NCBI GenBank assembly: GCA_025060455.1
Contig: JANXBY010000038.1
Location: 2,292 to 66,291 of the forward strand
Source: Armatimonadota bacterium
GTDB lineage: Bacteria; Sysuimicrobiota; Sysuimicrobiia; Sysuimicrobiales; Sysuimicrobiaceae
Length of the DNA: 64,000 nt
Reading direction: 5' to 3'
Made by a program: the position numbers and the translations under genes. This document shows, piece after piece, positions 7,664 to 43,122 of this stretch (position 1 is its first letter; each line of letters opens with the position of its first letter). The notes under the pieces are model-generated. The model saw nothing but the letters and a program-made list of their open reading frames with translations. It was not told where the DNA came from and ran no database searches.

Positions 7664-7687
7664 TATCGTGAACCTAGGTTCCGGATA
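7664..7687. promoter_or_regulatory. Near-perfect 24-bp palindrome TATCgtGAACCT/AGGTTCcgGATA (perfect 12-bp core GAACCTAGGTTC); candidate IclR operator
   Basis: Read directly in the iclR/livK-like divergent intergenic region, which is AT-richer than the surrounding genome. Flanked by direct repeats TTCCGGTAT and TTCCGGATA. Confidence 0.5.
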
Positions 7688-7776
7688 GAAGAACAGACCC
7701 CTTGCCCGGGGCAGCTCTGCGGCGGATTCTAGTGCCGGTCCGCTGGACCTCTGAAGTTGGTCGACGGGGGTGAGCC

Positions 7777-8973: not shown

Positions 8974-9067
8974 GTGAGGGGGAGGGGCCATCGTCGGACG
9001 TCTGTCTGACACCACTGCGCCACGAGCTGGCGCGGCCGCCAGGAAGGCGCTGCTGCAGCTGTGGGGC

Positions 9068-12278: not shown

Positions 12279-12303
12279 GCGACTCTCACCGAGGAGGCGG
12301 ATC

Positions 12304-12732: not shown

Positions 12733-12737
12733 GGAGG

Positions 12738-13718: not shown

Positions 13719-13772
13719 GCGCCTGCCTGTGAAACGCCGAGCGACGAAGGGCCGTACCTGCTGGGAAACGAC

Positions 13773-14420: not shown

Positions 14421-14421
14421 G

Positions 14422-28665: not shown

Positions 28666-28685
28666 TTGTTGACAATCCAGTCAAC
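28664..28685. promoter_or_regulatory. Perfect 8+6+8 inverted repeat TTGTTGAC-AATCCA-GTCAACAA containing a TTGACA -35-like box; candidate promoter/operator
   Basis: Read directly in the sequence, 26-47 nt upstream of the GTG start of the second livK-like gene. A related half-site (TTGTAGACAA) sits at the promoter at 43036-43064. Confidence 0.4.
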
Positions 28686-28710
28686 AACGTGGTAGCAAGA
28701 CGGCGAGGGG

Positions 28711-29919
28711 GTGGTGGCGGTGAAAGCACCGAGGTGGCTCGCGCTGGTCGGGTTGCTGTGCGGGGCCCTGGTGGCGGCGAGCAGCGCCGCGCCGGTGCGC
28801 AGCATCCGGCTGGGGGCGGTGATTCCCCTGAGCGGGGGACTGGCGGCCAACGGACGGTTCATCCGGGCCGGCTACGAGTTCGCGGTGGAGTACCTGAATG
28901 CGCGCGGCGGGGTGCGGCTCGGGGGACAGCGGGTGCCCTTGGAGCTGACGGTGCTGGACGACGAGTCGGACCCCACCAAGACCGTGAGCCGGATGGAGAG
29001 CCTTGCCCAGATGGGCATCTCCGCCTACCTGGGCGGGGTGGGAAGCCACCTGCACGCCGCGGCCGCGGCGGTGGCGGAGAAGAACCAGGTCCCGTACTGT
29101 GGGGTGGGGTTCGCCCTGTGGAGCATCCACCAGCGCGGCTACAAGTACCTGTTCAGCCCCTTCCCCAAGTCGCCGGAACTGGCCGTGGAGACGTACCGCA
29201 TCCTGAACGCGTACGTACCCCCGGAGCAGCGGCCCCGGCGCGTGGCCATCTTCGCGGAGCGCACCGACTGGGGCAAGGAGCAGGCGGACCTGTGGGTCAC
29301 CCGGTCTCGGGAGTTCGGCTACGAGGTGGTGTTCCGGGGCGAGTACACCGTGGGCGCGCGGGACGTGAGCGACCTTATCCTCCGGGCCCGCGCGGCCGGC
29401 GCGGAGCTGGTGCTGGCTGTACCCACCCCCGTGGACACCATCACCATGGTCCGGCAGATGCGCGAGCTGGGCTTTACGCCGAAGGCCTTCTTCGCGCTGC
29501 GGGGCGCGGACTCCATCGCGGTCCGGCAGGCCCTGGGAAAGGACGGAGACTTCTGGGTCTCCATGCCCGGGTGGCACCACGCGGTGAAGTACCCTGGGGT
29601 GGACGAGCTCAACGCGTGGTACCAGCGGCGGTTCGGCACGCCCGCGGAGGTGGCGGTCGGCTCCGCGGTGGCCTGCGTGCAGGTGATCGCCGCGGCGGTC
29701 GAGGATGCGCAGAGCACCGAGCCTACGAAGATCCGGGACGCGGTGGCCAAGGTGAACCTGATGACCATGGCGGGGCGGGTGCGCTTCCGGCCCGACGGCA
29801 CGAGCCCCGTGCCCGTGATCGCGCACCAGTGGCAGAACGGCCAGAGCGTGCTCATCTGGCCGCGGGAGTTCGCCACCGCGCCCTTCGCGTACCCGGCCAC
29901 GCCGTTCGGGGCGCGCTAG
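28711..29919 (+). CDS. ABC transporter substrate-binding protein, LivK family (orphan paralog)
   Basis: 402 aa. Collinear with, and about 70% identical to, the protein at 7777-8973. No permease or ATPase genes follow. Confidence 0.9.
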   Translation: MVAVKAPRWLALVGLLCGALVAASSAAPVRSIRLGAVIPLSGGLAANGRFIRAGYEFAVEYLNARGGVRLGGQRVPLELTVLDDESDPTKTVSRMESLAQMGISAYLGGVGSHLHAAAAAVAEKNQVPYCGVGFALWSIHQRGYKYLFSPFPKSPELAVETYRILNAYVPPEQRPRRVAIFAERTDWGKEQADLWVTRSREFGYEVVFRGEYTVGARDVSDLILRARAAGAELVLAVPTPVDTITMVRQMRELGFTPKAFFALRGADSIAVRQALGKDGDFWVSMPGWHHAVKYPGVDELNAWYQRRFGTPAEVAVGSAVACVQVIAAAVEDAQSTEPTKIRDAVAKVNLMTMAGRVRFRPDGTSPVPVIAHQWQNGQSVLIWPREFATAPFAYPATPFGAR

Positions 29920-29931
29920 GCGCATTCGACA

Positions 29932-30957
29932 ATGAAGGTCTTCAGACTCGTGGCGATCGGCGTAGCGCTGGCCTTAGCCGGTGCGCGACATGCCGGCGGG
30001 CAGCGGCTACCGGTCCAGCTAGATCTGCCGGTTGTTCCCGCCCTGGAACCCGCTCTACCGGTGCTCGTGGCGGAGGCAGCGGGGTACTTCCGAGGAGAGG
30101 GCGTCGAGGTGACGCGGATCCTCCTAACAGGAGGTGTTTCCATCCGAAATCTCCTGATTGGCGGGCGGGCGACGTTCGGAGTTCTCGGCACCGAGCACAT
30201 TCCACTGGCGCGCACTGCGGGGTCTCCGCTGAAGGCCGTAGCGTCGGTGTATGACCGGCTACATGTCACGCTCATCGTGCGCTCGGGACTTCGGGACCAG
30301 GTGAAGTCGGTGGAACACCTACGGGGACGGGTAGTGGGCGTGACCGCGCCCGGGTCCTTCACCTGGTCTGTTGCCGTGACGTTCCTGAAACGGGCGGGTC
30401 TGGAGCCCGAGCGCGATGTGCGGTTGCTGGCCGTGGGCACGGACGCTCACGTTCTGTATGCGGCCTTGCAGACCGGTCGGGTGGACGCCTTGGCTTTCAG
30501 CGAGCCCGTGCTCAGCCGGGCTGTGGTGGATGGAATAGGGTTCGTACTGGTGGATGTCTTTGATCCCGTCGTGGCGCGGCGGTGGATGGGCTCTGACCTT
30601 CTAATGGTCGGCGTGCTGGCGACCACGGAAACCGCTGCGCATACGCAACCGGAGGTGGTCGGCGCTTTGGTGAGGGGGATCAGCAAAGGTCTGGCGTATA
30701 TCCGCAGCCACGGGGCGGATGAGACCATTCAGCTGGTTGTTGGAAACCCGAAGACGTCGCAGCTGTTGCAGGGGGTATCGCGGGAGCTCGCGGTGCGGAT
30801 GATCCACCGCATTCGTCGGGGCTACGGCACAGGGTGTTTGAGTCCTGCTGGCTACCGGGCGGAGCTGCGGAGGATGATCGACACGGGGGTCCTCCCGCAG
30901 CCGGTGTCCTTTGAGGAGGCTACGGACGCCCGTTGGGCGGGGGTGTGCCCTCGGTAG
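29932..30957 (+). CDS. ABC transporter substrate-binding protein, NMT1/SsuA/TauA-like (orphan)
   Basis: 341 aa with signal peptide and PBP2 NitT/TauT-type fold. Noticeably lower GC than its neighbours. Confidence 0.75.
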   Translation: MKVFRLVAIGVALALAGARHAGGQRLPVQLDLPVVPALEPALPVLVAEAAGYFRGEGVEVTRILLTGGVSIRNLLIGGRATFGVLGTEHIPLARTAGSPLKAVASVYDRLHVTLIVRSGLRDQVKSVEHLRGRVVGVTAPGSFTWSVAVTFLKRAGLEPERDVRLLAVGTDAHVLYAALQTGRVDALAFSEPVLSRAVVDGIGFVLVDVFDPVVARRWMGSDLLMVGVLATTETAAHTQPEVVGALVRGISKGLAYIRSHGADETIQLVVGNPKTSQLLQGVSRELAVRMIHRIRRGYGTGCLSPAGYRAELRRMIDTGVLPQPVSFEEATDARWAGVCPR

Positions 30958-30990
30958 TGCGGGAACCGCGCCGGGGAGGAGGGGACGCGG

Positions 30991-31998
30991 TTGGCAATCC
31001 GGCTGGGCCTGCTGATGGCGTTGCTGGTGGTGCCGGCGTGGGCTGGAGCTCCAGCGACAGCCCAGGCGGCCTTCTCGGGGAGGACGGTCACCATCCTCGT
31101 GGGGTACTCACCAGGGGGCGGGTACGATCGCACGGCGCGCCTTGTGTCTCGCTATCTTCCGAGGTACCTTCCCGGCAGTCCCACGGTCGTCGTGCAGAAC
31201 ATGCCGGGTGCAAACAGCATCGTGGCAGCCAACCACCTGTATAATCTCGTACGGCCAGATGGTTTAACCATCGGACTGTTCGCGCGAAACCTAGTCCTGG
31301 CGCAACTGGTCGGAGTAGAGGGAATCCGGGTGGACATGGGGAGGTGGCAGTGGATCGGGAGCCCGGCGGTGGAGACCGACGTCCTAGCGGTTCGCTCCGA
31401 CTTGCCGTACCGGAATGTCCTAGAACTCCGCCGAGCCGACCCACCGGTGGTGTTCGGAGCATCTGGGCCGGGCGACGTCACCTACGACTTTCCACTCGCC
31501 CTGCGAGCGTTTCTCAATCTGAACATCCGTGTTGTTAGCGGCTACCCAGGGAGCGCAGACATCATGCTGGCGATCGAACGCAAGGAGGTAGACGGACGGG
31601 CAGGTTCCTGGTCCTCGCTCAGGCCGTTCGTCCATCGGGGGCTGATCCGGCCGCTGGTTCGCACACCGTCCGACAACCCAGAGCTGCAGGCGATTCCGGC
31701 GGATCTGGAGCTGCCGGTTGGAGCCCTTGCCCGCGAGGTGCTCCGGCTGCGGGCGGTGCCGAACCGGCTGGGGCGGCCTTTCGTGGCCCCGCCAGCCACC
31801 CCGCCGAACGTCGTGGCCGCATACCGGGAAGCGTTTCGTCGGATAACGGAAGACCGGGAGTTCTTAGTGGAGGCGGAACGGGCAGGTTTGGAGGTGACCT
31901 GGGTCTCCGGCGACGAGTGCCTACGGATCGTGCAGGGGGTGCTAGCCAGCCCTCCGTCCGTGGTGCGGGTGTTCCGGGAGTTCTTTCGGTTCCAGTAG
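30991..31998 (+). CDS. Tripartite tricarboxylate transporter substrate-binding protein (TctC/Bug family), orphan
   Basis: 335 aa with signal peptide. VGYSPGGGYDRTARL matches the Bug-family carboxylate-binding motif. No tctAB nearby. Lower GC. Confidence 0.8.
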   Translation: MAIRLGLLMALLVVPAWAGAPATAQAAFSGRTVTILVGYSPGGGYDRTARLVSRYLPRYLPGSPTVVVQNMPGANSIVAANHLYNLVRPDGLTIGLFARNLVLAQLVGVEGIRVDMGRWQWIGSPAVETDVLAVRSDLPYRNVLELRRADPPVVFGASGPGDVTYDFPLALRAFLNLNIRVVSGYPGSADIMLAIERKEVDGRAGSWSSLRPFVHRGLIRPLVRTPSDNPELQAIPADLELPVGALAREVLRLRAVPNRLGRPFVAPPATPPNVVAAYREAFRRITEDREFLVEAERAGLEVTWVSGDECLRIVQGVLASPPSVVRVFREFFRFQ

Positions 31999-32066
31999 GG
32001 GTTCGCCCATCGGGGCAAGAGCTGGAAAGTCCCGGTGGTGTGCCTTCAATGAGCTTACAGGGGAGC

Positions 32067-33470
32067 ATGATGGAGAAGTCTCGGCCGGCGCGGAGCCTCC
32101 AGGAGGTCCTGGACGCGGTGGGAAATGTGGTGGCCTTTCTGTATAACAACCCCACCGGTGCTCGCCCGTTTCCCGTGGTCCCGCCGGAGTTCACCAACTG
32201 GCGGGACGAACAACACGCGTGGCGTGAGACGGTGGCGTTGTTCGACCTGTCGCACCACATGAGTGACCTATACGTCTACGGGCCGGACGCCTTTGCGCTG
32301 TTGGAGCACCTGGCCATCAACAGCTTCCGCAATTTCCGGCCGGGGATGGCGAAGCAGTTCGTGGCATGCACCAAGGAGGGCTACGTCGTCGGGGACGCGG
32401 TCTTGTTCTACCTGGAGGCCCAGACGTTTCAGCTGGTGGGGCGTCCCTCGGCGCTCAAGTGGGTGCAGTACCACGGAGAGGCTGGTCGGTGGCGGGTGAG
32501 ATGCGAGAGGGACGACTGGTCGTTGGCTGACCCCCATAGGCCGCGGAAGGTGTACCGCTACCAGCTGCAGGGGCCTAACGCTCCCGCACTGCTCGAGAAG
32601 CTCAACGGTGGGCCACTACCCCACGTGAAGTTCTTCCAAATGACTTGGATCACCGTCGCGGGACGGAGGGTGATGTTTTTGCACCACGGTATGGCGGGAG
32701 TGGCAGGCGGGGAGCTGTTCGGCCCTTGGGAGGACGGGCCGGCCGTACGGGGTGCCATCGTGGAGGCGGGCCGAGAGTTCGGCCTGCGCCAGGTAGGGAG
32801 CCGAGCGTATGCCACGAACGCCCTGGAGTCCGGGTGGATCTCTGGGGTCGTACCCGCCATCTACGTGGACGAGGAACTGCGCGCGTACCGAGAGTGGCTA
32901 CCCGCAACCAGCTACGAGGCCACGGGATCCTTGGGCGGCAGCTTCTACTCGCGTTACATCGAAGACTACTACCTGACTCCCTGGGATCTGGGCTACGGCC
33001 ACATCCTGAAGTTCGACCACGACTTTGTGGGCCGCGAGGCCCTGGAGGTCAAGGCCCAGCAACCCCACCGACGAAAGGTCACCCTGGTATGGGACCCGCG
33101 GGACGTGGCCGCTGTTTTCGAAACTCTGTTCACACGCCCGAAGGGGCAACGTGCTAAGTACCTGGACCTTCCTGTGCCCCGGTACAGCATGTGGCAGTAC
33201 GACCGTGTCGAGAGTCCGGACGGCCGAATGGTTGGGATTTCCACCTCGTGTGGCTACAGCTCGAACGAAGGGGCAATGTTGTCGCTCGCCATGGTTGAAC
33301 CCGAGTACAGCGAGCCGGGGACGCGGGTGGTAGTGATCTGGGGCGAGGAAGGCGGCGGGTCGCGGAAGCCGAGCGTGGAGCGGCACGCGCAGGTGGAGAT
33401 CCGGGCTACCGTGGCGCCGGTCCCGTACTCGGAGGCGGCCCGGCGGTACCGCCAGGCGGTGTCGGGTTAG
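32067..33470 (+). CDS. Tetrahydrofolate-dependent aromatic O-demethylase (LigM/DesA-like, GcvT fold), copy 1
   Basis: About 467 aa. Collinear, as far as I recall the sequence, with Sphingobium LigM (LQEVL..., PVVPPEFTNWRDEQHAWRE, YEATGSLGGSF, VLWGEEGGGSRKPSVE). Start chosen at ATG 32067/32070 near GGGGAG; the 31917 ORF start adds an unlikely extension. Confidence 0.85.
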   Translation: MMEKSRPARSLQEVLDAVGNVVAFLYNNPTGARPFPVVPPEFTNWRDEQHAWRETVALFDLSHHMSDLYVYGPDAFALLEHLAINSFRNFRPGMAKQFVACTKEGYVVGDAVLFYLEAQTFQLVGRPSALKWVQYHGEAGRWRVRCERDDWSLADPHRPRKVYRYQLQGPNAPALLEKLNGGPLPHVKFFQMTWITVAGRRVMFLHHGMAGVAGGELFGPWEDGPAVRGAIVEAGREFGLRQVGSRAYATNALESGWISGVVPAIYVDEELRAYREWLPATSYEATGSLGGSFYSRYIEDYYLTPWDLGYGHILKFDHDFVGREALEVKAQQPHRRKVTLVWDPRDVAAVFETLFTRPKGQRAKYLDLPVPRYSMWQYDRVESPDGRMVGISTSCGYSSNEGAMLSLAMVEPEYSEPGTRVVVIWGEEGGGSRKPSVERHAQVEIRATVAPVPYSEAARRYRQAVSG

Positions 33471-33627
33471 AACCGCCTGTTGCGAAGCAGCCTGAGGCGC
33501 GGATGAGCCAGCGTGCGCAACCAGCACGTCACTGGGACTGTGGAGGGGCTGGATCACCGCGTCTCACTCCGGTGACGGGCCCTGGCACGACGAGGCGGTT
33601 CCGTGATGAGGAGGACGGTGGTCTGTC

Positions 33628-35268
33628 GTGACACAGCCGCTGGTAGACGTGGCGCGGTCTCTACATCTCCGGGACGACGAGGTCGTTCCGTACGGCCGGG
33701 ACAAGGCCAAAGTTCTGGTCGACGCCCTGCACCGGCGCCAAGGGTGGCCCGACGGCGCCCTGGTGCTGGTTACCGGGATCAACCCCACCGCCGCGGGTGA
33801 AGGGAAGACCACCACCGCCATCGGCCTCGCGGACGCCCTGCGACGTCTGGGCCGGCGAGCGGTGGTGGCCCTCCGGGAGCCCTCCATGGGGCCGTGCTTC
33901 GGGGCCAAGGGAGGGGGAACGGGTGGGGGCCGGGCCCAGGTGGTCCCCGCGGACGACATCAACCTGCACTTCACCGGAGACCTACACGCGGTGGCGGCGG
34001 CCCACAACCTGATCGCGGCGGTGGCGGACAACGCCCTGTTCCACCGCAGGGTGCCGGGGCTGCGCCCAGACAACGTCTGGTGGCGGCGCGTGCTGGACAC
34101 CAACGACCGTGCCCTGCGACAGGTGGTCGTGGGGCTAGGTGGGGGCGCGCACGGGGTCGCACGGGAGACCGGCTTTGACATCACCGCGGCGTCCGAGGTG
34201 ATGGCGGTACTGTGTCTGGCGCAAGACCGTGTGGACCTGAAGGCGCGGCTGGGCCGGATGGTGGTGGGCGAGCGGGAAGACGGCAGCCTGGTCACCGTGT
34301 GGGACCTGGGCGTGGCGGGCGCCGCCGCCGCCCTGCTGAAGGACGCGCTGCACCCCAACCTCGTTCAGACCCTGGAGGGCACCCCAGCCTTCGTGCACGG
34401 TGGCCCGTTCGCGAACATCGCGCACGGCTGCAGCAGCCTGGTGGCGACCCAGCTGGCGTTGAAGTGTGCGGAGCTGGTGGTCACGGAGGCGGGGTTCGGG
34501 ACAGACCTCGGGGCGGAGAAGTTCGTGCACATCAAGTGCCGCACGGGGCGGCTACGGCCCGGCGTGGCGGTGGTGGTTGCTTCCGTGAGAGCCCTGCGGA
34601 GGCATGGAGGCGCGGGCAACCGTGCGGAGCAGCCTGACCCCGCCGCGGTGGAGCGGGGGATGGCAAACCTGGACAAGCACGTGGAGAACGTCCGCCACCT
34701 GGGCCTGCAGCCGGTGGTAGCGGTGAACTGTTTCGGGGGTGACGCGCGGGAAGAGGTGGAGCTGGTGCTGGATCACTGCGACGCCCTCGGAGTGCCCGCG
34801 GCGCGTTTCCGGGCGTGGGAACTCGGCGCCGAGGGTGGGCTGGAGCTGGCGGAGCTGGTGGACGCCCTCGTCCGCAACCACCAGGGGATCTCCGGGACTC
34901 GTTTCCTGTACGAGCCCAGCTGGCCGTTTGAGCGCAAGCTGGAAGCCATAGCCACTACCCTGTACGGCGCGGCCGGCGTGGATCTGTCCCCGCGGGCGCG
35001 GGCCAAGCTGTCCCGGTACGAGCAGCTCGGCTACCGGGAGCTGGCGGTGTGCGTGGCCAAGACCCAGTACTCGCTGTCGGACGACCCGAACAAGCTCGGC
35101 CGGCCCCAGGGCTTCCGCATCACGGTGCGGGACGTGCAGCTATCCGCCGGGGCGGGCTTCGTGGTGGCCTACAGCGGCGACGTGCTGACCATGCCGGGGC
35201 TGCCCAAGCACCCCGCCGCCGAGCGGTTCGACCTGACCTCCGAGGGGCGGATCGTCGGGCTCACCTGA
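33628..35268 (+). CDS. fhs: Formate-tetrahydrofolate ligase (LigH-like)
   Basis: 546 aa, collinear with Fhs (TPAGEGKTTT P-loop, FGAKGG). GTG start with a GAGGAGG ribosome-binding site. Confidence 0.95.
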   Translation: MTQPLVDVARSLHLRDDEVVPYGRDKAKVLVDALHRRQGWPDGALVLVTGINPTAAGEGKTTTAIGLADALRRLGRRAVVALREPSMGPCFGAKGGGTGGGRAQVVPADDINLHFTGDLHAVAAAHNLIAAVADNALFHRRVPGLRPDNVWWRRVLDTNDRALRQVVVGLGGGAHGVARETGFDITAASEVMAVLCLAQDRVDLKARLGRMVVGEREDGSLVTVWDLGVAGAAAALLKDALHPNLVQTLEGTPAFVHGGPFANIAHGCSSLVATQLALKCAELVVTEAGFGTDLGAEKFVHIKCRTGRLRPGVAVVVASVRALRRHGGAGNRAEQPDPAAVERGMANLDKHVENVRHLGLQPVVAVNCFGGDAREEVELVLDHCDALGVPAARFRAWELGAEGGLELAELVDALVRNHQGISGTRFLYEPSWPFERKLEAIATTLYGAAGVDLSPRARAKLSRYEQLGYRELAVCVAKTQYSLSDDPNKLGRPQGFRITVRDVQLSAGAGFVVAYSGDVLTMPGLPKHPAAERFDLTSEGRIVGLT

Positions 35269-36829
35269 GGGCGCGGGACGCCTGCGGACTGAGCGGGGCG
35301 GGTCGGGGTTCGGGCAGAACTTCCGCGCGGGAGCCCTGACCCCGGAAGTGGTGGACCCACGAGCACGTACCCCGCACCTCTTCCGGCACAGGAGCCACCC
35401 ACGTGGCTTCCCACTGCAACACGCGGCCCGTGTGCTTGGCCAGCCGGTACACGCGCGCGTGGATGCACTCCCGGTCGCCGAACTCACAGGTGTTGCCGTC
35501 GGTGCCGCCGCAGGGGCCGTTGGCGAGGCCCTTGGGGCAGGTCTCCGGGCACACGAAGAAGGTGTGCGGCAGCCGACACGACCCGCACATCTGGCAGCCC
35601 AGCCAGCCGCCCTTGAGGGCGTGCTCCACCCGGCCCAAAGCCCTGCCGGCAGCGCTGCGGGGGTCGGTGCGAGCCACCAAAGCTCCCGCCGCGCGGGCCA
35701 GGGGCGAGCCGTGGTCGAACACCCAACGGTCCAAGGCCTGCAGGATCCGGAACCGGCGGATCTCCGCGGGGGAGGCCAGGGCGTCGTAGGGTGGGGCGTC
35801 CAGGTAGAAGGGGTCTTCGGGGACCAGCCGCACCGGTCGGCGGTCAGGGTGCCGCATGAACTCGTCCCACGCGGACTCCCAGGATCTCAAGTCCGGGCAG
35901 TCGCGCCGCCACCGCTCCACCGCGTCGAGGAGCTCCTCGAGGGTGCGCGGGGTGTGGGCGCCGCACACGTGGGCGCCGGCGAGCCCGAGCCGGGCCGCGC
36001 CTACCACCTGCAGCGCGGCCCGCAGGATGGCCCTCTGGCGGCCGTGGTCCGGAGCCTTTGCTTCTGCCTCAAGACACCGCAGCAGGTCCGGAGGCACGTA
36101 CACCCCCGGCAGAGTAGCTCCCTGCAGGAGCCGCGCGGCCAGCCGGGGAGTGAGCAGCCACACGGTGGCCAGCACCGGGGGGTGCAGGCCCCGCCGGCCC
36201 AACCAGCCCGCCAGCTCCACCAGCTTGCGGGGATCCCACCCGATCTGGGTGATCAACAGGTCCGCGCCTGCCCGCAGCTTCTTAGCGGCCTTCACGTACT
36301 GGCCCAGCAGGGCTTCCTCCCGGTACTTAAAGGGGTTCACTGCCGCGGCCAGCAGGGAGTCCGGAAGCTCGTGGCGGGCCATGCGCAGAGCGTCCACGGA
36401 GTCCAGGTAGCGGGCAGATCCCTCCCGGGGAGGCTCCCTCAGGGCATCTCCGGTCAGGAACAAGAAGCTCTGAAGCCCACCCGTGCGGGCGCGCTCCAGG
36501 TCCCGCTGGAGGTGTAAGGCGGTGCGGCCCTTGCCTGCCCAGTGGACGAGCGGGACGGTCCCGGTGACCTCCGCTACCCGCAAGGCGACCGAGATGGGGT
36601 CGTGGTCGCGATCCGTCCGCACCCGGTCGGAGACGGTAATGGCCGTTGCCCGCCCGTCCTCTTGCAGCCAGCGGGCGAGTGCCGTGACTTCCGACACCAC
36701 ATCCTCCAGGGGCTTTGAGCCCAGGAGGGGCGGTGACTCCACGGTGAGGGCGAAGCCTCTCCGGCCCAGGACCTCCGCGAGGCGGCTCCGGTACCCGCGG
36801 CCGGTGCCCGAGGAGGCGTCGTGCCCCAT
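35261..36829 (-). CDS. Methylenetetrahydrofolate reductase (MetF-like) fused to an MTHFR C-terminal zinc-ribbon domain (MetV-like)
   Basis: About 523 aa from ATG 36829 (MGHDASSG...). N-terminal MTHFR TIM-barrel. C-terminal CQMCGSCRLPHTFFVCPETCPKGLANGPCGG...CEFGDREC cysteine cluster characteristic of MetV. Start ATG overlaps the upstream ligM-like stop (ATGA). The 37057 ORF start is rejected. Confidence 0.8.
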   Translation of the reverse strand: MGHDASSGTGRGYRSRLAEVLGRRGFALTVESPPLLGSKPLEDVVSEVTALARWLQEDGRATAITVSDRVRTDRDHDPISVALRVAEVTGTVPLVHWAGKGRTALHLQRDLERARTGGLQSFLFLTGDALREPPREGSARYLDSVDALRMARHELPDSLLAAAVNPFKYREEALLGQYVKAAKKLRAGADLLITQIGWDPRKLVELAGWLGRRGLHPPVLATVWLLTPRLAARLLQGATLPGVYVPPDLLRCLEAEAKAPDHGRQRAILRAALQVVGAARLGLAGAHVCGAHTPRTLEELLDAVERWRRDCPDLRSWESAWDEFMRHPDRRPVRLVPEDPFYLDAPPYDALASPAEIRRFRILQALDRWVFDHGSPLARAAGALVARTDPRSAAGRALGRVEHALKGGWLGCQMCGSCRLPHTFFVCPETCPKGLANGPCGGTDGNTCEFGDRECIHARVYRLAKHTGRVLQWEATWVAPVPEEVRGTCSWVHHFRGQGSRAEVLPEPRPAPLSPQASRALR

Positions 36830-38226
36830 CAGCGGCGTGTCACCGCCGCCCGGTACTGGCGTGCGGCCTCCGAGAAGGGAACGGGCGCCACGGAGGCGCG
36901 GATCTCCACCTGCACGTGGGGCTCCACGCTGGGCTTGCGCGACCCGCCGCCCTCCTCGCCCCAGACCACCACCACCCGCGTCCCGGGGGTGCTGTAGGGT
37001 TCCTCCACGACGGCCAACGACAGCATGGCGTGGTCGTTCCAGCTGTAGCCCGGCCACATGGAGAACCCGACCACTTCACCACGGTCGTTGAGCACCTTGT
37101 CGTACATCCAGGTGGCGTACTGGGACACCGGGAGGTCGATGTACTTGGCCTGCTGGCCGGACGGCTTGGTGAACAACGTCCCGAAGGCCTGGGCCACGTC
37201 GTCCCCGTCCCACACCAGGGTCACCCTCCTGCGGTGGGGACCCTTGGCCTTGGCCTCCAGGGCGTCGCGGCCCACGAAGTCGTGGTCAAACTTCAGGATG
37301 TGGCCGTACCCCAGCTCCCACGGGGTGAGGTAGTAGTCCTCCACGTTGCGGGAGAAGAAGCTCCCGCCCAGGGAGCCCACCGCTTCGTAGCTGTTCGCGG
37401 GTAGCCACTGGCGGTACGGCCGCAGCTCCTCGCCGGTGTAGATGGCGGGGAGGGGGCAGGGGATCCACCCGGAGTCCAGGGCGTTGGTGGCGTATGCCCG
37501 GGAGCCAACCTGCCGCAGCCCGAACTCCTGGCCCGCCTCGACGATGGCCGCCTTCACCGCGGGCCCATCCTCGAAGGGCCCGAACAGCTCGGCCCCCGCC
37601 ACGCCTGCCATGCCGTGGTGCAGCATGCGCACCCTCCGGCCCGCGATGGTGATCCAGCCCATGTGGAAGAACTTCACATCTGGCAGCGGGCCGCCGTTGA
37701 GCTTCTCCAGCAGGGCGGGAGCGTTGGGGCCCTGCAACTGGTAGCGGTACACCTTCCGGGGCCGGTGGGGGTCCAGCACCGACCACTCGTCCCGCTCCAG
37801 CTGCACGTCGTAGCCGCCGGTCTGGGCGTGGTACTGGACCCAGTTGTGGGCAGAGGGCCGGCCCACCAACTGAAAGCTCTCGCGGTCCAGGTAGAACAGG
37901 ATGCCGTCCCCGATCACGTAGCCCGCGGGAGTGCACACCACCAGCTGCTTGGCCCGGCCGGGCTCGAAGTTCTTGAAGCTGTTGATGGCCAGACGCTCCA
38001 GCAGCCGGAAGGCGTCGGGGCCCCGCACGTACAGGTCCGTCATGTGGTAGGAGAGGTCGTAGAGGGCCACCGTCTCCCGCCAGGACCGCTGCTCGTCCCG
38101 CCAGTTGGTGAACTCCGGGGGCACCACGGGGTAGATCCGGGTGCCCGTGCGGTTGTTGTACAGGAACTCGGCGATGTTGGGCACCGAGTCCAAGACCTCC
38201 TGAAGGTTGCGCGGCGCGGCGCTCAC
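36829..38226 (-). CDS. Tetrahydrofolate-dependent aromatic O-demethylase (LigM/DesA-like), copy 2
   Basis: 465 aa, collinear with copy 1 and with LigM. High GC, native-like composition. Confidence 0.85.
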   Translation of the reverse strand: MSAAPRNLQEVLDSVPNIAEFLYNNRTGTRIYPVVPPEFTNWRDEQRSWRETVALYDLSYHMTDLYVRGPDAFRLLERLAINSFKNFEPGRAKQLVVCTPAGYVIGDGILFYLDRESFQLVGRPSAHNWVQYHAQTGGYDVQLERDEWSVLDPHRPRKVYRYQLQGPNAPALLEKLNGGPLPDVKFFHMGWITIAGRRVRMLHHGMAGVAGAELFGPFEDGPAVKAAIVEAGQEFGLRQVGSRAYATNALDSGWIPCPLPAIYTGEELRPYRQWLPANSYEAVGSLGGSFFSRNVEDYYLTPWELGYGHILKFDHDFVGRDALEAKAKGPHRRRVTLVWDGDDVAQAFGTLFTKPSGQQAKYIDLPVSQYATWMYDKVLNDRGEVVGFSMWPGYSWNDHAMLSLAVVEEPYSTPGTRVVVVWGEEGGGSRKPSVEPHVQVEIRASVAPVPFSEAARQYRAAVTRR

Positions 38227-38256
38227 CGTCCTCCCCCCTTTCGGTGTGTTCGCCCC

Positions 38257-39267
38257 TTAACGCTTCGCCTCCGCACGGCCGGCAGCCACTTCCACGGGCG
38301 GTGTGCCGTACGTGTGGAAGGTGGCCACCGTGGGCAGGCCCCATGCCTGCCCCTTCTTGCGCTCCGCCTCGCTCCAGACCACCGGCTTCCAGTCCGGAGC
38401 CAGCAGCAGGCGGGCCCCGGGGCAGGCGATCTCGAACCGGTTCCCCCCAGGCTCGTACACGTACAGGAAGAAGGTCTGCTGGATCGCGTGCTTGTGCGGC
38501 CCGGTCTCGATGGGGACCCCATACTCCAGGCAGACGTCCGCGGCCCGCAGCACCTCCTCCCGGCTGTCCACCGCGTAGGTGAGGTGGTGGAAGCGACCGC
38601 GGCAGCCGGTGGCGTCCTCGGTGATGGCCAGGTCGTAGGTCTTGTTGCACACCGTCAGCCACGCGCCCTTCTCCGAGCCGTCGTCGAACACGACGGCTTC
38701 CGTGAGACGGAACCCCAGCACCTCCTGGAAGAACCGACGGCTGGTCCGGACGTCCGCGGCGAAAAAGTTCACGTGGTCCAGGCGGCGCAGGTTGCAGCCG
38801 CGGGCGGGAAATCGGGAGGCCTGGTTCTTGAGGGCAGGCCGGGTGTCGGGGGTCGGCCGGTACCACTCCACCTCGTACAGCAGCTCCAGCAGGTGGCCGT
38901 CGGGGTCCCGGAAGCGGTAGGCGGGACCGTGGCCCAGGTCGCCGTCTACCCAGCCTTCCCCGAGCCCCGACCGCTCCACCGCCTCCACGCGCCGCTGTAG
39001 GGCTTCGGGGCTGGTGGCCCGGAAGGCGCAGTGGCCCATGCCCGGGTACGGGGAGGCGGTGACCTTGAGGGTGTGGTGGGCGTAGTCGTCCCACCCTCGC
39101 AGGTACACGGACTCGCCCTGCCGGCCGCTCTGCACCAACCCCATGACCTCCGTGAAGAAGCGGACCGTGTCCTCGAGTTTGGGGGTGAGCAACTCCACGT
39201 GGCTGAGGTGGGCCACATCGAAGCTTAGGGGTCCCACGCTGAACTTCAGTTCCTCCACACCGACCAC
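38257..39267 (-). CDS. Type I extradiol ring-cleavage dioxygenase (catechol 2,3-dioxygenase-like), copy 2
   Basis: 336 aa, paralog of 12738-13718 (FSVGPLSFDVAHLSHVELLTP...HHLTYAV...YVYEPGGNRFE). Confidence 0.9.
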   Translation of the reverse strand: MVGVEELKFSVGPLSFDVAHLSHVELLTPKLEDTVRFFTEVMGLVQSGRQGESVYLRGWDDYAHHTLKVTASPYPGMGHCAFRATSPEALQRRVEAVERSGLGEGWVDGDLGHGPAYRFRDPDGHLLELLYEVEWYRPTPDTRPALKNQASRFPARGCNLRRLDHVNFFAADVRTSRRFFQEVLGFRLTEAVVFDDGSEKGAWLTVCNKTYDLAITEDATGCRGRFHHLTYAVDSREEVLRAADVCLEYGVPIETGPHKHAIQQTFFLYVYEPGGNRFEIACPGARLLLAPDWKPVVWSEAERKKGQAWGLPTVATFHTYGTPPVEVAAGRAEAKR

Positions 39268-39280
39268 CCCCCGGTGGTTG

Positions 39281-39904
39281 CTAGCCGCCTGCCACCTGCC
39301 TGCGCAGCCCGTGCAGGTCGTAGGTGAGGGCTCCCTGTTCCAGCTGGGCCCGTAGCGCCGCCTCCCGCGCCGCCCTGGCCCGGGCGGCCTCCAGCACGTC
39401 GGGAACCCGCTCCGCGGCTACCACCACGGCACCGTCCGCGTCCAGCACCACCACGTCCCCCGGACGGACTGTGGTGCCGCCCACCACCACCGGTTTGTCG
39501 ATGGCGCCCCACACGGACTTGCCCGCGCCGCGCACGCTCACGAACCGGGCCCAGACGGGGAGGCCCAGGGCCCGCAGTTCCTCCACGTCCCGGACGGCTC
39601 CGTCCACCAGGACCGCCGCCGCGCCCCTCACCTTGGCCTGCAGGGCGAGGATCTCACCCACCAGGGCCACCGGTGCCGGCTCGGGCATGGAAACCACCAG
39701 CACGTCCCCGGGCTGCACCCGCTCCATAACCGCGTGCACCATGAGGTTGTCGTCCTGACCGCACCGCACCGTCCGGGCAGGCCCTGCGGCGCGGCTGCCG
39801 GGCACCACCTGGACCCAGGGGCCTTCCAGCAGGCCCGTGCGGCCCGCGGCCTCGTACACCGTGGCCACGCCCAACTGCGCCAGCTCCCTCATCTGCGTGT
39901 TCAC
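39281..39904 (-). CDS. RraA-family aldolase/decarboxylase (LigK/GalC-like)
   Basis: 207 aa RraA fold (GDVLVVSMPEP...VLVDGAVRDVEEL). The family includes LigK of the protocatechuate 4,5-cleavage pathway (4-carboxy-4-hydroxy-2-oxoadipate aldolase). Confidence 0.8.
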   Translation of the reverse strand: MNTQMRELAQLGVATVYEAAGRTGLLEGPWVQVVPGSRAAGPARTVRCGQDDNLMVHAVMERVQPGDVLVVSMPEPAPVALVGEILALQAKVRGAAAVLVDGAVRDVEELRALGLPVWARFVSVRGAGKSVWGAIDKPVVVGGTTVRPGDVVVLDADGAVVVAAERVPDVLEAARARAAREAALRAQLEQGALTYDLHGLRRQVAGG

Positions 39905-40638
39905 AACTCCCTCACCACCTGGGGCAGGAGGCGTTGGAACGCCTCCGCGTACTGGATGCCTCGGTCACCTGACAGGCGGCGCGCGTGGTTGGCCCGCCGC
40001 TGCGCCGTAGCGGTGTAGTAGTCCACCAGGTACCGCTGGGAGGCCACCGCCTCCATGGCCTGCCGCTTGAGGGCGAACACGGGCGTGATGTCCAAGAAAG
40101 TGGTGGGGACGAACCCGCACACCTCCGACTGGTGTGGCTCGAACGCGAGCACCTCCGCCGGCCGCACCGTCTGGAAGGCGCTGGCCACGCCCGCACCGGA
40201 GGCCAGCTGTCGGGCCCGTTCGGTGGCCTGGTACGCCACCGGATGGTCGGGGTTGAAGGGATCGCGCTCCGTGTGCGTGAGGATCACGTCCGGGGCCCAC
40301 TCCCGAATGACGGAGGCCAGCTCCTCTACCCGCTCCGTGCCTGCCTCCAGGGGGTAGTCACCCCAGTCCAGGCAGCGGAAGGAGGCGCCGAGCACCTCCG
40401 CGGCGCGGCTGGCTTCCTCGTGGCGGATGGCTTTGACGCGCTCCACCGTCTGGCCAGGCTGTGCCCACAGTTCCCCCGACTCCCCACGCTCGCCGTACGA
40501 CAGCGCCACCACCAGGGCGGATCCCCCGCGCCGGGTGACGGTGGCAATGGCGCCCGCCGCACGCCACACGAAGTCCGCCGCGTGGGCGCTCACCACCAGC
40601 AGCCGCCGGGCCACGCGGGCGTCCAGCTGGGCCGTCAC
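39901..40638 (-). CDS. PIG-L/LmbE-family deacetylase-like protein
   Basis: About 245 aa from GTG 40638 (VTAQLDARVARRLLVVSAHAADFVW...). HxDD-like N-terminal motif of LmbE-like hydrolases. 4-nt overlaps at both ends. The longer ORF to 40953 overlaps the GntR gene. Confidence 0.7.
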   Translation of the reverse strand: MTAQLDARVARRLLVVSAHAADFVWRAAGAIATVTRRGGSALVVALSYGERGESGELWAQPGQTVERVKAIRHEEASRAAEVLGASFRCLDWGDYPLEAGTERVEELASVIREWAPDVILTHTERDPFNPDHPVAYQATERARQLASGAGVASAFQTVRPAEVLAFEPHQSEVCGFVPTTFLDITPVFALKRQAMEAVASQRYLVDYYTATAQRRANHARRLSGDRGIQYAEAFQRLLPQVVREL

Positions 40639-41318
40639 GGGATCGCCACCTCCGAGGTCTGCCGGGCCACCTCCCGCAGGGTGGCCGCCACCGCCTCCAG
40701 GTGCGCCCGCATGCTCGCCTCCGCGGCGTCGGGATCCTTCGCGGCCACCGCGTCCACGATGGCCCGGTGCTCCTGAAGGGACCGGGGCAGGCGGCCCGGG
40801 GCCAGCACGGTGCGGTACTGGTACCGAACCATCTGGGCCCGCAAGGAGTCGAGGAGGCGTGCGGCGGTCAGGTGGCGACTGGCTGTTACCAGCACCTCGT
40901 GGAACCGGCGGTTGCACTCCGTGTACCGAAAGGTGTCGCCCTTGCGGGCGCACGCCGCCATCTCGCGAAGGATGGATCGCAGCTGGCGGAGGTCCTGCGG
41001 TGTGGCCCGCTGGGCCGCGTGCCGCGCCGCGAGCCCCTCCAGGGCAGCCCGGGCCTCCAGGATCTCCACCGCCTCCTGCTCCGTCAGCAAGCGGACCCGC
41101 GCGCCCCGGTTGGGAGCGCGTTCCACCACGCCTTCCTGCTCCAGCCGGGCCAGAGCGGTCCGCACCGCAGCCCGTCCCACGCCCAGCATGCGGACCAGCT
41201 CGGCTTCCACCAGCCGTTGCCCGGGAACCAGGCGGCCCTCCAGGACCGCCCGGCGCAGCTCCTGGTAGCAGTAGGACTCGCCGTGGCCGCGCTGCAGCCG
41301 CCGCCCCTTGGCCCTCAA
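40635..41318 (-). CDS. GntR-family transcriptional regulator (FadR/FCD subfamily)
   Basis: About 227 aa. Winged HTH (YQELRRAVLEGRLVPGQRLVEAELVRMLGVGRAAVRTALARLEQEG) plus FCD domain. Only plausible start is a TTG overlapping the upstream stop (TTGA). Confidence 0.75.
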   Translation of the reverse strand: MRAKGRRLQRGHGESYCYQELRRAVLEGRLVPGQRLVEAELVRMLGVGRAAVRTALARLEQEGVVERAPNRGARVRLLTEQEAVEILEARAALEGLAARHAAQRATPQDLRQLRSILREMAACARKGDTFRYTECNRRFHEVLVTASRHLTAARLLDSLRAQMVRYQYRTVLAPGRLPRSLQEHRAIVDAVAAKDPDAAEASMRAHLEAVAATLREVARQTSEVAIP

Positions 41319-42238
41319 CCGTCCACCCCCGATCGGCCGATCCGCACCGAGTTGCGCAACATGGTCCTGACCGCCTCCTCCGACAACCCCAAGCTCAGGA
41401 GCCGGTCCACCATCAGGGGCAGGCCGTCCTCCACAGGGGGTGCGTGCACCTGACCCAGGTCGCTGGACAGGAAAGAGTGCTGGGCACCTACCTCCTGCAC
41501 CACCTCCACCAGCTCTTCCCAGGAGATTTTCCCGCTGTGGGCGGTGCCAAAGCACCGCTCCAGCCACGCGCCCTCCCGTGCCAGCTGCCTCTGGTCGTGG
41601 ACGCCCAGGCGCTGGGTGGGGAAGTCCGGGTGCGTCACCACGATGCACCGGACTCCCGCGGACCGGGCGGCTTCCACTACAGCGAAGATCTCGTCCCGGG
41701 ACAGATGGCCGGTGGCCAGGACCATTTGGTGACGCGCCACCACCCGCAGCACGTCCCGCAACTCGGGCAAAGGCTCCCCACGACTGTCCACCACCCGGAC
41801 CGGGTCATACCGCAGACCTGCCCGACGCAACTCCTCCTGCATCTGGGCCCACACCGGCCGCCGGCCCTCGGTGGGGTGTCGCCCGGGGCTTTCGTTCTCC
41901 GCGTCCACGGTGGGTAGCCACACGATGCGCGCTCCCTCCCGCGCGGCGATCTCCACCGCCACGGGGTTCAGCCCGCCCACAGATGCGTTGAGGCAGATGG
42001 AGCCCAGCACGTCCACCTCCGGGACGACAGTCCGGGCCAGCCGGGCACGGCCCGCGGTGGGCGTGTAGTGGGACTTGATGGCAAACCCCGCCAGGCCCCG
42101 CTCCGCGAACCGCCGGGCCACCTCCAGGTCGTCCGCCCGGCGCGGGAGGACGTCGGGCGCGCTGTGCACGTGGAGGTCGTACGCGCCGCGCACCAGCGCC
42201 AGCGCCCGGGGACTGGGCACGGATTCGTGTTGGTTCAC
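41315..42238 (-). CDS. Metal-dependent hydrolase, amidohydrolase/TIM-barrel-like (DLHVHS motif)
   Basis: About 307 aa from GTG 42238. YDLHVHSAPD metal-binding motif and a KSHY motif. The N-terminal 227 aa of the track ORF are an antisense artefact. Confidence 0.65.
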   Translation of the reverse strand: MNQHESVPSPRALALVRGAYDLHVHSAPDVLPRRADDLEVARRFAERGLAGFAIKSHYTPTAGRARLARTVVPEVDVLGSICLNASVGGLNPVAVEIAAREGARIVWLPTVDAENESPGRHPTEGRRPVWAQMQEELRRAGLRYDPVRVVDSRGEPLPELRDVLRVVARHQMVLATGHLSRDEIFAVVEAARSAGVRCIVVTHPDFPTQRLGVHDQRQLAREGAWLERCFGTAHSGKISWEELVEVVQEVGAQHSFLSSDLGQVHAPPVEDGLPLMVDRLLSLGLSEEAVRTMLRNSVRIGRSGVDG

Positions 42239-43017
42239 GGGCCCCCCGCCAGATCCTCCAGCCACTTCGCCGACGCCCGGGCCACCCGCGGCGGCACCTT
42301 CAGCTCCTCGAGCAGCTCGCAGGCAGCCCGCATCTCGTCCACCCGTCGGGCCGCGTGGAGTCGGGTGCCCTCGACCAGGCGCCGCAGCAGCTGTGCGTCG
42401 GCCTCCAACAGGGTCCGTTGGATGTCCTCGTAGGTCTCCTCCTCGCAGCCTAGGGCGTGCGCCGCCGCCAGGGCTTCCCACACCGCGGCGGCCAGTCCCT
42501 TCATGAAAACGCTGCGAACCAGCTTCCGGCTGGCCGCAACTCCCACCTCCGGCCCCAGCACCTGCACCGGCAGCCCCAACGGTCCGAGCCGATTCGCCAG
42601 CGCCTGGGCCCCGGGCCCGCTGGCCAGCGCGGGCGTGCGGAGGCCACGGCCCAGCACGGGTGCCATCAACGCCACGTCCGCAAACAGGGCCCCGCTGGGC
42701 TCCACCACCGCACCGACCCGGCGCTTGAGGGCGGGAGAGGTGGTGTTGCAGTCCGCGTACACCTGGCCGGGCCGAAGCACCGGGCGTACAGACTCGGCGA
42801 CGTCTAGGGCGGCAGACGGGGTGGTCAGGACGAGGATCACATCCGCCTGCGCCGCTGCACCGGCGGGGTGCGGCGCCAGGGGTACCGCGCCGGGCACCCG
42901 TTTGGGCTGCGGATCCCACCCCACCACCTGCGCGCCTACCCGGGCCAGGTCCTCCGCCACGGCGCTGCCGGCTTCTCCCAGGCCGAACACCGCCACCGTG
43001 AGGGAGGGCGCGGACAC
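42235..43017 (-). CDS. NAD(P)-binding oxidoreductase (6-phosphogluconate/3-hydroxyisobutyrate dehydrogenase-like)
   Basis: About 260 aa from GTG 43017. Rossmann motif VAVFGLGEAGSAVAEDL. First gene behind the promoter at 43036-43064. Confidence 0.65.
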   Translation of the reverse strand: MSAPSLTVAVFGLGEAGSAVAEDLARVGAQVVGWDPQPKRVPGAVPLAPHPAGAAAQADVILVLTTPSAALDVAESVRPVLRPGQVYADCNTTSPALKRRVGAVVEPSGALFADVALMAPVLGRGLRTPALASGPGAQALANRLGPLGLPVQVLGPEVGVAASRKLVRSVFMKGLAAAVWEALAAAHALGCEEETYEDIQRTLLEADAQLLRRLVEGTRLHAARRVDEMRAACELLEELKVPPRVARASAKWLEDLAGGP

Positions 43018-43035
43018 CCGTGGCTGCACGGCGGC

Positions 43036-43064
43036 ATTGTATTTCCCGGCGCCCGCACTGTCAA
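43036..43064 (-). promoter_or_regulatory. Consensus sigma-70 promoter: TTGACA, 17 nt, TACAAT (minus strand)
   Basis: Read directly: the reverse complement of 43036-43064 is TTGACAgtgcgggcgccgggaaaTACAAT. It sits 19 nt upstream of the oxidoreductase GTG and 58 nt downstream of the tRNA-Pro 3' end. Confidence 0.7.
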
Positions 43065-43122
43065 CTTTGTTGTAGACAATCTTGCAGTGGAGACCACGGG
43101 ACAACGGGTGAACACGGCTTTT

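Follow-up and report, generated by a model that had tools for sequence, protein, structure and literature searches.

A 64,000-nucleotide (nt) stretch of DNA from an Armatimonadota bacterium placed in Sysuimicrobiota (assembly GCA_025060455.1, contig JANXBY010000038.1; hereafter the window) was analyzed for an operon of eight genes, G1 to G8, on its minus strand (43029–35261). The GC content of the window is about 71%, and the host is probably a high-GC bacterium of hot-spring origin. All eight open reading frames (ORFs) were found, and Pfam and NCBIfam profile searches confirmed both the genes and the families named in an earlier interpretation made from the letters and an ORF list (the sequence-only reading). 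The explanation that we favor, and hold to be rather probable, is that the operon encodes a self-regulated catabolic unit that converts methoxylated and hydroxylated benzoates (vanillate/protocatechuate and/or syringate/3-O-methylgallate/gallate) to pyruvate and oxaloacetate. The genes and other features are collected in Table 1.

Table 1. Features of the operon and of the rest of the window. Gene coordinates include the stop codon. SBP, solute-binding protein; TPP, thiamine pyrophosphate; CHA, 4-carboxy-4-hydroxy-2-oxoadipate; THF, tetrahydrofolate.
Feature	Position	Strand	Description
G1	42235–43029	−	NAD_binding_2 + DUF1932, 264 aa
G2	41315–42238	−	DUF6282, 307 aa
G3	40635–41318	−	GntR + FCD (FadR-type)
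G4	39901–40638	−	PIG-L, GalB-type
G5	39281–39904	−	RraA-like, predicted CHA aldolase, 207 aa
G6	38257–39267	−	Two-domain VOC (type I) extradiol dioxygenase
G7	36829–38226	−	THF-dependent aryl O-demethylase, LigM/DesA family
G8	35261–36829	−	MTHFR + Cys-rich C-terminal DUF5981, 522 aa
Sigma-70-type promoter	43036–43064	−	TTGACA-17-TACAAT, 11/12 matches
Candidate operator palindrome	43070–43079	−	TTGTCTACAA (TTGT-N2-ACAA), 5 nt upstream of −35 hexamer
Second operator-like site	28666–28687	+	TTGTTGACAA; pattern itself 28666–28675
Convergent companion operon	28711–35268	+	Three SBPs, LigM-1, fhs
Peripla_BP_6 SBP	28711–29919	+	
NMT1 SBP	29932–30957	+	
TctC SBP	30991–31998	+	
LigM-1	32049 or 32067 to 33470	+	LigM/DesA paralogue
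fhs	33628–35268	+	Formate-THF ligase
Second aromatic-catabolic cluster	44–15618	+	TPP enzyme, SBP and the genes below
Mo-hydroxylase, large subunit	1749–3962	+	
Mo-hydroxylase, 2Fe-2S subunit	3959–4489	+	
Mo-hydroxylase, FAD subunit	4341–5339	+	
IclR regulator	6822–7610	−	PcaR/PobR-like
LivK-type ABC transporter	7777–12278	+	Complete
CMD-family protein	12304–12732	+	
VOC-2	12738–13718	+	Extradiol dioxygenase; 48% identity with G6, nearest to AphC of RHA1
ORF without family	13773–14420	+	
PobA	14422–15618	+	4-Hydroxybenzoate 3-monooxygenase; makes protocatechuate

The promoter proposed in the sequence-only reading was recovered as the sole sigma-70-like site between 34.8 and 43.4 kb (shuffle mean 0.3) and is kept in three relatives (L001, L009 and L010). 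Immediately upstream is a tRNA-Pro gene. The GTG start of G1 (43029) follows the −10 hexamer by only about 6–7 nt, and relative L010 has an ATG there; because this start stands so close behind the −10, the operon mRNA is probably leaderless. The statement that almost all junctions are 4-nt overlaps was a mild overstatement, as four of the seven are of this kind: GTGA at G1/G2, G3/G4 and G4/G5, and TTGA at G2/G3. Within the last, the reported TTG start of the regulator was borne out by the junction sequence, and it is the sole start that retains the whole winged helix-turn-helix (wHTH). The remaining junctions are a 1-nt overlap (TGATG, G7/G8) and two short gaps, namely 13 nt at G5/G6 (22 nt if G6 starts at GTG 39258, which has better Shine-Dalgarno spacing than GTG 39267) and 30 nt at G6/G7, the latter carrying a strong Shine-Dalgarno sequence, GGGGGGAGG. 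No internal promoter or terminator exceeded shuffle expectation within the operon. G8 and fhs converge with their 3' ends overlapping by 8 nt (35261–35268) and no terminator-like structure between them.

G4 matched the 4-oxalomesaconate hydratase GalB of Pseudomonas putida over its full length (5CGZ; E = 9.5e-58, 45% identity), and the two have the motif SAH[AS]ADFVWRA in common. By this homology, G4 is a GalB-type 4-oxalomesaconate (4-carboxy-2-hydroxymuconate) hydratase of the PIG-L fold. The PIG-L protein had been described as a hydrolase and counted toward an undescribed variant pathway, and since it is GalB-type, that part of the earlier argument for novelty falls away. Assignment of G4 as a thiol-biosynthesis deacetylase (BshB/MshB/Mca) was rejected, as the best match, BshB1, scored 66 bits where the cut-off is 182.5. 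G5 scored 185.2 against the equivalog model for CHA aldolase/oxaloacetate decarboxylase (NF006731; cut-off 179) and aligned without gaps to the HMG (4-hydroxy-4-methyl-2-oxoglutarate)/CHA aldolase of P. putida F1 (3NOJ; E = 2e-41, 41% identity). All catalytic and metal residues of CHA aldolase are kept, including the Arg-Asp metal/enolate motif: R105, D106, E181, R177, K129, H57, N53 and R22 of G5 are equivalent to Arg-123, Asp-124, Glu-199, Arg-195, Lys-147, His-75, Asn-71 and Arg-40 of 3NOJ. Judged by these matches, G5 is a CHA aldolase. RraA proper, the RNase E regulator, is about 160 aa long and lacks the aldolase C-terminal helix; this assignment was rejected for G5, which scored 74 against the RraA model (NF006875; cut-off 136) and has 207 aa with the Glu-199 equivalent. 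The GalB homology of G4 together with the aldolase match of G5 implies that the predicted pathway must end with oxalomesaconate being converted to CHA and then to pyruvate and oxaloacetate.

The distribution of this gene set was surveyed with tblastn in one genome per species, yielding 80 loci from Solirubrobacterales, Thermoleophilia, Rubrobacter, Thermomicrobium, Ktedonobacteria, Thermus/Meiothermus, Trueperaceae and Sysuimicrobiota. Partner genes were counted within 4 kb of the DUF6282 gene (the family of G2), and LigM within about 10 kb. A GalB homologue was present in 76 of the 80 loci, the aldolase in 68 and the VOC dioxygenase in 67. All four core genes were present, and contiguous in the order DUF6282-GalB-aldolase-VOC, in 62 species loci of at least five phyla, among them Actinomycetota, Chloroflexota, Deinococcota and Sysuimicrobiota, and the core also occurs in Geobacillus (Bacillota). 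This strengthens the linkage between a VOC dioxygenase and a LigK/GalC-type aldolase on which the sequence-only reading was built. Six homologue neighborhoods all read DUF6282-PIG-L-RraA-Glyoxalase, with GntR/FCD, DUF1932 and GCV_T genes in some. LigM was found at 15 loci. A GntR/FCD gene accompanied 36, directly upstream of DUF6282 in 32 of them and in the position seen in the window in three; an in-operon regulator is thus correct for the window but is not a general trait, and the mid-operon position is a local rearrangement. The closest relatives (78–80% identity) are Candidatus Tepidifontimicrobium and other Sysuimicrobiota (CSP1-3) hot-spring metagenome-assembled genomes (MAGs), which are fully syntenic from RNase Y/LexA to PlsY. 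We propose that Terrabacteria-type phyla possess the core of G6, G2, G4 and G5 as an ancient mobile cassette, with G1, LigM and MetF as lineage-specific add-ons. Loci L013–L088, mostly from Solirubrobacterales, also showed a TPP enzyme upstream (39 loci), a SnoaL_4 protein immediately following the VOC dioxygenase (30 loci) and a CoA-transferase pair accompanied by an IclR regulator (about 21 loci), as well as GMC oxidoreductases and a Meth_synt_2 protein.

Geobacillus zalihae has the same set of VOC dioxygenase, GntR/FCD regulator, DUF6282, PIG-L, RraA-like and DUF1932 dehydrogenase genes. In contrast to the window, its VOC gene is divergent, lying beside a GntR-DUF6282-PIG-L-RraA-DUF1932-MFS-esterase row in which an MFS transporter and an esterase take the place of LigM and MetF. 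Its dioxygenase is the closest solved relative of G6 (9WGJ, 58% identity), so a thermophile in culture also carries the cassette, and a crystal structure of its dioxygenase is already available. The structure was deposited as a 'catechol 1,2-dioxygenase', and we found no publication on it.

G6 itself is, from its profile matches and conserved residues, an Fe- or Mn-dependent VOC extradiol dioxygenase of the 2-His-1-carboxylate type. It contains two VOC domains (PF00903) and passes the catechol 2,3-dioxygenase equivalog model (TIGR03211; 333.1, cut-off 320.2). The triad H165/H228/E279 is kept in G6 and in all 70 homologues, and Y269, H260 and W203 match Tyr257, His248 and Trp192 of homoprotocatechuate 2,3-dioxygenase (HPCD). 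The two-domain fold and the triad are likewise those of AphC (7Q2A/3LM4), HPCD/MndD and XylE, but G6 differs from these enzymes in its second sphere, where the acid-base histidine (His200 in HPCD, His199 in XylE) is replaced by Tyr211 (codon 38635–38637). A tyrosine also occupies this position in 9WGJ and in 23 of the 70 cassette-linked enzymes, within the motif NK[ST]Y[DE], while the other 47 (IAAHELIY) and the second VOC enzyme of the window, VOC-2, have histidine. The carboxylate-binding Arg243 and Arg293 of HPCD have no counterparts in G6. Its genomic partners are enzymes of 4-carboxylated pathways rather than a hydroxymuconate semialdehyde (HMS) dehydrogenase or hydrolase. Neither the operon nor the roughly 45 genes of the window include a LigB-type dioxygenase (PF02900) or a PF07746 protein.

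The two genes at the head of the operon lack characterized relatives. G1 matched only structural-genomics proteins of no assigned function (3QSG, 1I36 and 4EZB), and its NAD_binding_2 and DUF1932 domains set it apart from the Gfo/Idh/MocA-type dehydrogenases LigC and PmdC that act on 4-carboxy-2-hydroxymuconate semialdehyde (CHMS). PmdC is Gfo/Idh/MocA-like, and the hemiacetal/lactone chemistry of CHMS has been described (PMC11489326). A DUF1932 dehydrogenase homologue was found near DUF6282 in 24 of the 80 loci, including 19 of the 62 with a full core, usually directly upstream of DUF6282, and it recurs in cassettes of Sysuimicrobiota, Deinococcota, Bacillota, Rubrobacter and Thermoleophilia. 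G2 had no NCBIfam match and no PDB match by sequence or profile search. A fold search returned an amidohydrolase barrel, with phosphotriesterase (PTE)-like lactonases, dipeptidases and TatD closest and LigI further down the list. The invariant residues H23/H25, D112/E116, H178, H203 and D260 lie at the C-terminal ends of strands 1, 4, 5, 6 and 8, and G2 keeps the classic amidohydrolase metal-ligand pattern (HxH/acid/H/H/D). The earlier description of G2 as amidohydrolase-like holds by fold, but it is no sequence relative of LigI/LigJ and differs in family from the LigI-type (Amidohydro_2) hydrolase of the lactone 2-pyrone-4,6-dicarboxylate (PDC). No LigC-type or LigI/LigJ-type gene was found among the roughly 45 window genes. 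Since a dehydrogenase followed by a lactonase-like fold fits conversion of a hemiacetal to a lactone and then an acid, we infer that G1 is an analogue of LigC/PmdC and that G2 is a PDC hydrolase, a functional analogue of LigI. DUF6282 homologues number in the thousands (3,335 clusters at 50% identity). Three metagenome proteins appear to be fusions of DUF6282 with an HpcH/HpaI aldolase (616 aa) or with GntR/FCD (520–541 aa) (P0242, P0247 and P0255); they may be real or gene-calling read-through and were not used as evidence.

G3 contains a GntR domain (PF00392) and an FCD domain (PF07729) and is, by its domains, a FadR-type GntR regulator. The operator core of Bacillus subtilis GntR, of the FadR subfamily, is TTGT-AT-ACAA, and TTGT-N2-ACAA occurs twice in the 64-kb window against 0.14 expected, once at each of the two convergent operons. 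The site at the operon promoter is invariant in four aligned relatives. The second is part of an inverted repeat, TTGTTGAC-N6-GTCAACAA, that shares bases with a TTGACA hexamer and lies 24 nt ahead of the first gene on the plus strand; L001 and L010 have TTGTCAACAA at the corresponding position. Across the 80 loci (1.41 Mb), 37 of 47 TTGT-N2-ACAA matches, in 36 loci, were no more than 260 nt upstream of the start of a cassette gene, and Geobacillus has the same type of site with one more spacer base (TTGT-N3-ACAA) at its three cassette promoters. The enrichment and conservation of the palindrome and its presence at both promoters strongly support a conserved GntR-operator pair, with binding predicted, and the region from 28.7 to 43.1 kb is probably a single regulon in which G3 presumably represses both operons. 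As in other FadR-subfamily regulators, a wHTH and FCD architecture goes with a short palindrome, TTGT...ACAA, that abuts the promoter or overlaps it; G3 differs in that its gene lies mid-operon in this lineage and starts with TTG.

The last two genes link the operon to one-carbon (C1) metabolism. G7 scored 603.7 against the LigM model (NF047885; cut-off 580) and 654.6 against the DesA model (cut-off 800), which predicts a THF-dependent O-demethylase. Its plus-strand paralogue LigM-1, 75% identical to it, scored 556 and 649, both below cut-off. G8 matched PF02219 (E = 2.6e-11; 43.9 bits, gathering threshold 24) and PF12225 (E = 3e-17) and fell far below the NCBIfam MetF cut-offs, whereas Fhs scored 753 against NF010030 (cut-off 652). 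The LigM-MetF gene order also occurs in relatives. From these family assignments, G8 and the adjacent Fhs are predicted to recycle the C1 unit (methyl-THF) released by G7.

Taken together, these features outline a pathway in which G7 would O-demethylate the substrate, with G8 and Fhs recycling the C1 unit, and G6 would perform 4,5-cleavage of protocatechuate and probably open gallate or 3-O-methylgallate as well. G1 would then oxidize the cyclic hemiacetal of CHMS to PDC in a LigC-like reaction, and G2, as a metal-dependent lactonase, would open PDC to oxalomesaconate in the manner of LigI. G4 would hydrate oxalomesaconate and G5 would split the product. The order from CHMS hemiacetal through PDC to oxalomesaconate is suggested because the dehydrogenase and the lactonase-like G2 are translationally coupled at the operon head. 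Oxalomesaconate can arise from direct cleavage of gallate, from hydrolysis of PDC, or from 4-carboxy-2-hydroxy-6-methoxy-6-oxohexa-2,4-dienoate (CHMOD), the cleavage product of 3-O-methylgallate (PMC6888825). The choice among protocatechuate, gallate and 3-O-methylgallate, like the roles of G1 and G2, is proposed here from sequence evidence. Consistent with this scheme, PobA, which forms protocatechuate, is encoded in the same window, and LigM/DesA paralogues, MetF and Fhs are linked. For regulation, G3 may repress by binding TTGT-N2-ACAA next to the −35 of the leaderless promoter and a second site before the convergent SBP-LigM-Fhs operon, with an aromatic acid or a pathway intermediate releasing it.

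Several observations weigh against this scheme. Type I enzymes normally cut 4-substituted catechols proximally, which for protocatechuate means 2,3- and not 4,5-cleavage, and the nearest characterized relative of G6, AphC of RHA1, is an alkylcatechol enzyme. Alicyclobacillus acidoterrestris has a 68%-identical relative of 9WGJ with no cassette nearby (L090), flanked by genes for an MFS transporter and a RidA-like protein, and because this copy stands apart, the 9WGJ-type clade is not confined to the cassette. DUF6282 likewise has at least one other context, since copies occur outside the cassette beside an NMT1-type ABC transporter, without GalB, aldolase or VOC genes, in Ktedonosporobacter rubrisoli (L003/L012) and Streptomyces sp. 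(L081). A G1-type gene adjoins only 19–24 of the 80 cassettes, and therefore either the core works without the dehydrogenase or its gene lies elsewhere in those genomes; in the same set, its presence tracks neither VOC subtype, LigM nor PobA. Canonical pathways require the LigU/GalD isomerase, and no such (PrpF-type) gene was found in the scanned window genes or in six annotated neighborhoods.

The scarcity of the dehydrogenase leads to an alternative that we consider unlikely, although it is the strongest of those weighed: the core may serve a gallate/3-O-methylgallate (syringyl) route only. G6 would then yield oxalomesaconate and PDC, or the methyl ester CHMOD, G2 would hydrolyze PDC or CHMOD and G1 would be accessory, with protocatechuate handled, for example, by VOC-2 or a β-ketoadipate pathway. 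Extradiol enzymes do turn pyrogallol-type substrates into a hydroxymuconate plus a pyrone carboxylate, and the four-gene core is found without the dehydrogenase in most loci. For each of the two LigM paralogues, the DesA (syringate) model gives a higher score than the LigM model does, the second VOC enzyme adjoins PobA, and many Solirubrobacterales loci, with their CoA-transferase pair and IclR regulator, hint at a separate ortho route. A pure gallate route, however, has no obvious job for the dehydrogenase, whose gene overlaps G2 by 4 nt at the operon head and recurs in cassettes of several lineages, and G7 is above the LigM (vanillate) cut-off.

G2 might also be no lactonase at all. As LigU/GalD is missing, G2 might do the isomerase (tautomerase) step on oxalomesaconate, or it might be a hydratase or decarboxylase; we regard this as decidedly improbable. 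LigJ, uronate isomerase and ACMSD are amidohydrolase-fold enzymes with hydratase, isomerase and decarboxylase reactions, a PrpF-type isomerase was in no cassette neighborhood read, G2 also occurs at loci that have no dehydrogenase to form PDC, and its fold match is generic. Set against this, the full set of metal ligands and the closest folds (PTE-like lactonases, dipeptidases and TatD) point to hydrolysis, and the adjacency of the dehydrogenase gene to G2 fits the usual dehydrogenase and lactonase pair.

Far less credible is a protocatechuate 2,3-type or catechol meta-cleavage route, in which G6 would cut proximally, G2 would be an ACMSD/PraH-like decarboxylase, and G4 and G5 would act on the non-carboxylated analogues 2-oxopentenoate and 4-hydroxy-2-oxovalerate. 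The match of G6 to the catechol 2,3-dioxygenase model, the proximal cleavage by AphC and HPCD, and the amidohydrolase-like decarboxylase of the Paenibacillus 2,3-pathway all speak for it. This route was rejected on the identities of G4, which resembles a 4-carboxy-2-hydroxymuconate-specific enzyme over its full length at 45% identity, and of G5, which exceeds the CHA-aldolase equivalog cut-off, together with the lack of its other enzymes: aldehyde dehydrogenase, 4-oxalocrotonate tautomerase/decarboxylase and HMS hydrolase were found neither in the window nor in the cassettes. The view that there is no single pathway, the RraA-like protein being an RNase regulator, the PIG-L protein a thiol deacetylase and their clustering incidental, has almost nothing left to it and is already contradicted by the data, since the weak sub-threshold matches to the RraA and BshB/MshB models and an RNase Y gene 2 kb away are opposed by scores far below cut-off, strong aldolase and GalB matches, a gene order shared by 62 of the 80 species loci and accompanied by a regulator and operator of its own, and four translationally coupled junctions.

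The scheme that we favor, from O-demethylation through PDC to pyruvate and oxaloacetate, shares its logic with the lig/des system of Sphingobium sp. SYK-6: ring cleavage, oxidation, lactone hydrolysis, hydration and aldol cleavage to pyruvate and oxaloacetate. The THF-dependent O-demethylase is linked to MetF and formate-THF ligase in both, the ligM-metF-ligH operon being mirrored by G7, G8 and Fhs (PMC6888825), and the final aldolase (LigK and G5) belongs to the same LigK/RraA-like family. SYK-6 (LigAB, LigC, LigI, LigU, LigJ and LigK; DesA, LigM, DesB and DesZ) differs in having a LigB-type in place of a VOC dioxygenase, a Gfo/Idh/MocA in place of a NAD_binding_2/DUF1932 dehydrogenase, LigI (Amidohydro_2) in place of DUF6282, LigJ in place of a PIG-L/GalB hydratase, and LysR (LigR) and MarR (DesR) regulators in place of GntR/FCD. 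It also has LigU, which is absent here, whereas the MetF of the operon has the extra DUF5981 domain. Relative to the gal cluster of P. putida KT2440 (GalA, GalD, GalB and GalC), G4 is a GalB homologue and G5 the GalC enzyme type, while GalA is a fused LigB-type gallate dioxygenase and the operon has a VOC enzyme instead. The operon further lacks GalD (PrpF), contains additional DUF6282, DUF1932 and O-demethylase/C1 genes, and has a regulator of another family. By homology, the last two steps are orthologous to the P. putida gal enzymes, and the O-demethylation/C1 module to SYK-6 lig/des.

The operon thus appears to be a variant of the protocatechuate 4,5-cleavage/gallate pathway rebuilt with a non-orthologous dioxygenase, dehydrogenase, hydrolase candidate and regulator. 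We found no published description of the cassette; reports on Bacillus ligniniphilus C23O and Paenibacillus mhq were considered and are unrelated to it. The sequence-only reading, which proposed an undescribed variant, is partly supported: right in substance and wrong on PIG-L and LigI/LigJ. Cross-phylum conservation and the regulator-operator pair make this more than a single odd operon. A broader possibility, which we consider slightly less likely than not, is that Terrabacteria-type phyla (Actinomycetota, Chloroflexota, Deinococcota, Bacillota and Sysuimicrobiota) independently assembled a protocatechuate-4,5/gallate pathway in which three steps fall to enzymes with no kinship to those of Proteobacteria: a distal-cutting VOC dioxygenase (with His replaced by Tyr in one subclade), a DUF1932 hemiacetal dehydrogenase and a DUF6282 metal-dependent PDC lactonase. 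Such a pathway would lack a dedicated oxalomesaconate isomerase, and a conserved GntR/TTGT-N2-3-ACAA switch would govern it.

Bacteria funnel vanillate and syringate from lignin mainly through the protocatechuate 4,5-cleavage and gallate pathways, which also serve as the industrial route to PDC, a polymer precursor. To our knowledge, LigB-type dioxygenases, LigC and LigI are common to all characterized versions. If the proposed scheme is true, a widespread alternative enzyme set, partly of thermophile origin, which pathway-annotation tools currently miss, would explain use of these compounds in many Actinomycetota, Chloroflexota, Deinococcota and uncultured hot-spring phyla. It would also give functions to two DUF families, DUF6282 and DUF1932, and provide thermostable PDC-forming and PDC-opening enzymes and a ready-made GntR/operator biosensor. 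The fhs and folD genes of Sysuimicrobiota have been described as methyl-branch genes and a sign of the reductive glycine pathway (PMC11604079). The fhs and metF genes, counted there toward autotrophic C1 pathways, stand here in an O-demethylation regulon, a catabolic context.

In the convergent operon, the SBPs are of three transporter classes (ABC LivK-type, ABC NMT1/SsuA-type and tripartite TctC) with no permease or ATPase adjoining, and the sole LivK-type membrane components in the window lie 16 kb from this row. GC content falls to 0.64–0.66 at 30000–33500, against about 0.71, over exactly the NMT1-SBP, TctC-SBP and LigM-1 genes. Because this drop coincides with absence of the three genes from the syntenic relatives L001 and L010, it suggests a recent insertion or duplication in the lineage of the window. 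The second aromatic-catabolic cluster has no TTGT-N2-ACAA site; PobA stands beside VOC-2 in it, with no lower pathway of its own adjoining. The CMD-family protein of this cluster might conceivably supply the isomerase step that is missing. In a Meiothermus MAG (L052, 13032–13647), a CMD gene 68% identical to that of the window directly follows the cassette DUF1932 gene and is preceded by a TTGTTGACAA site.

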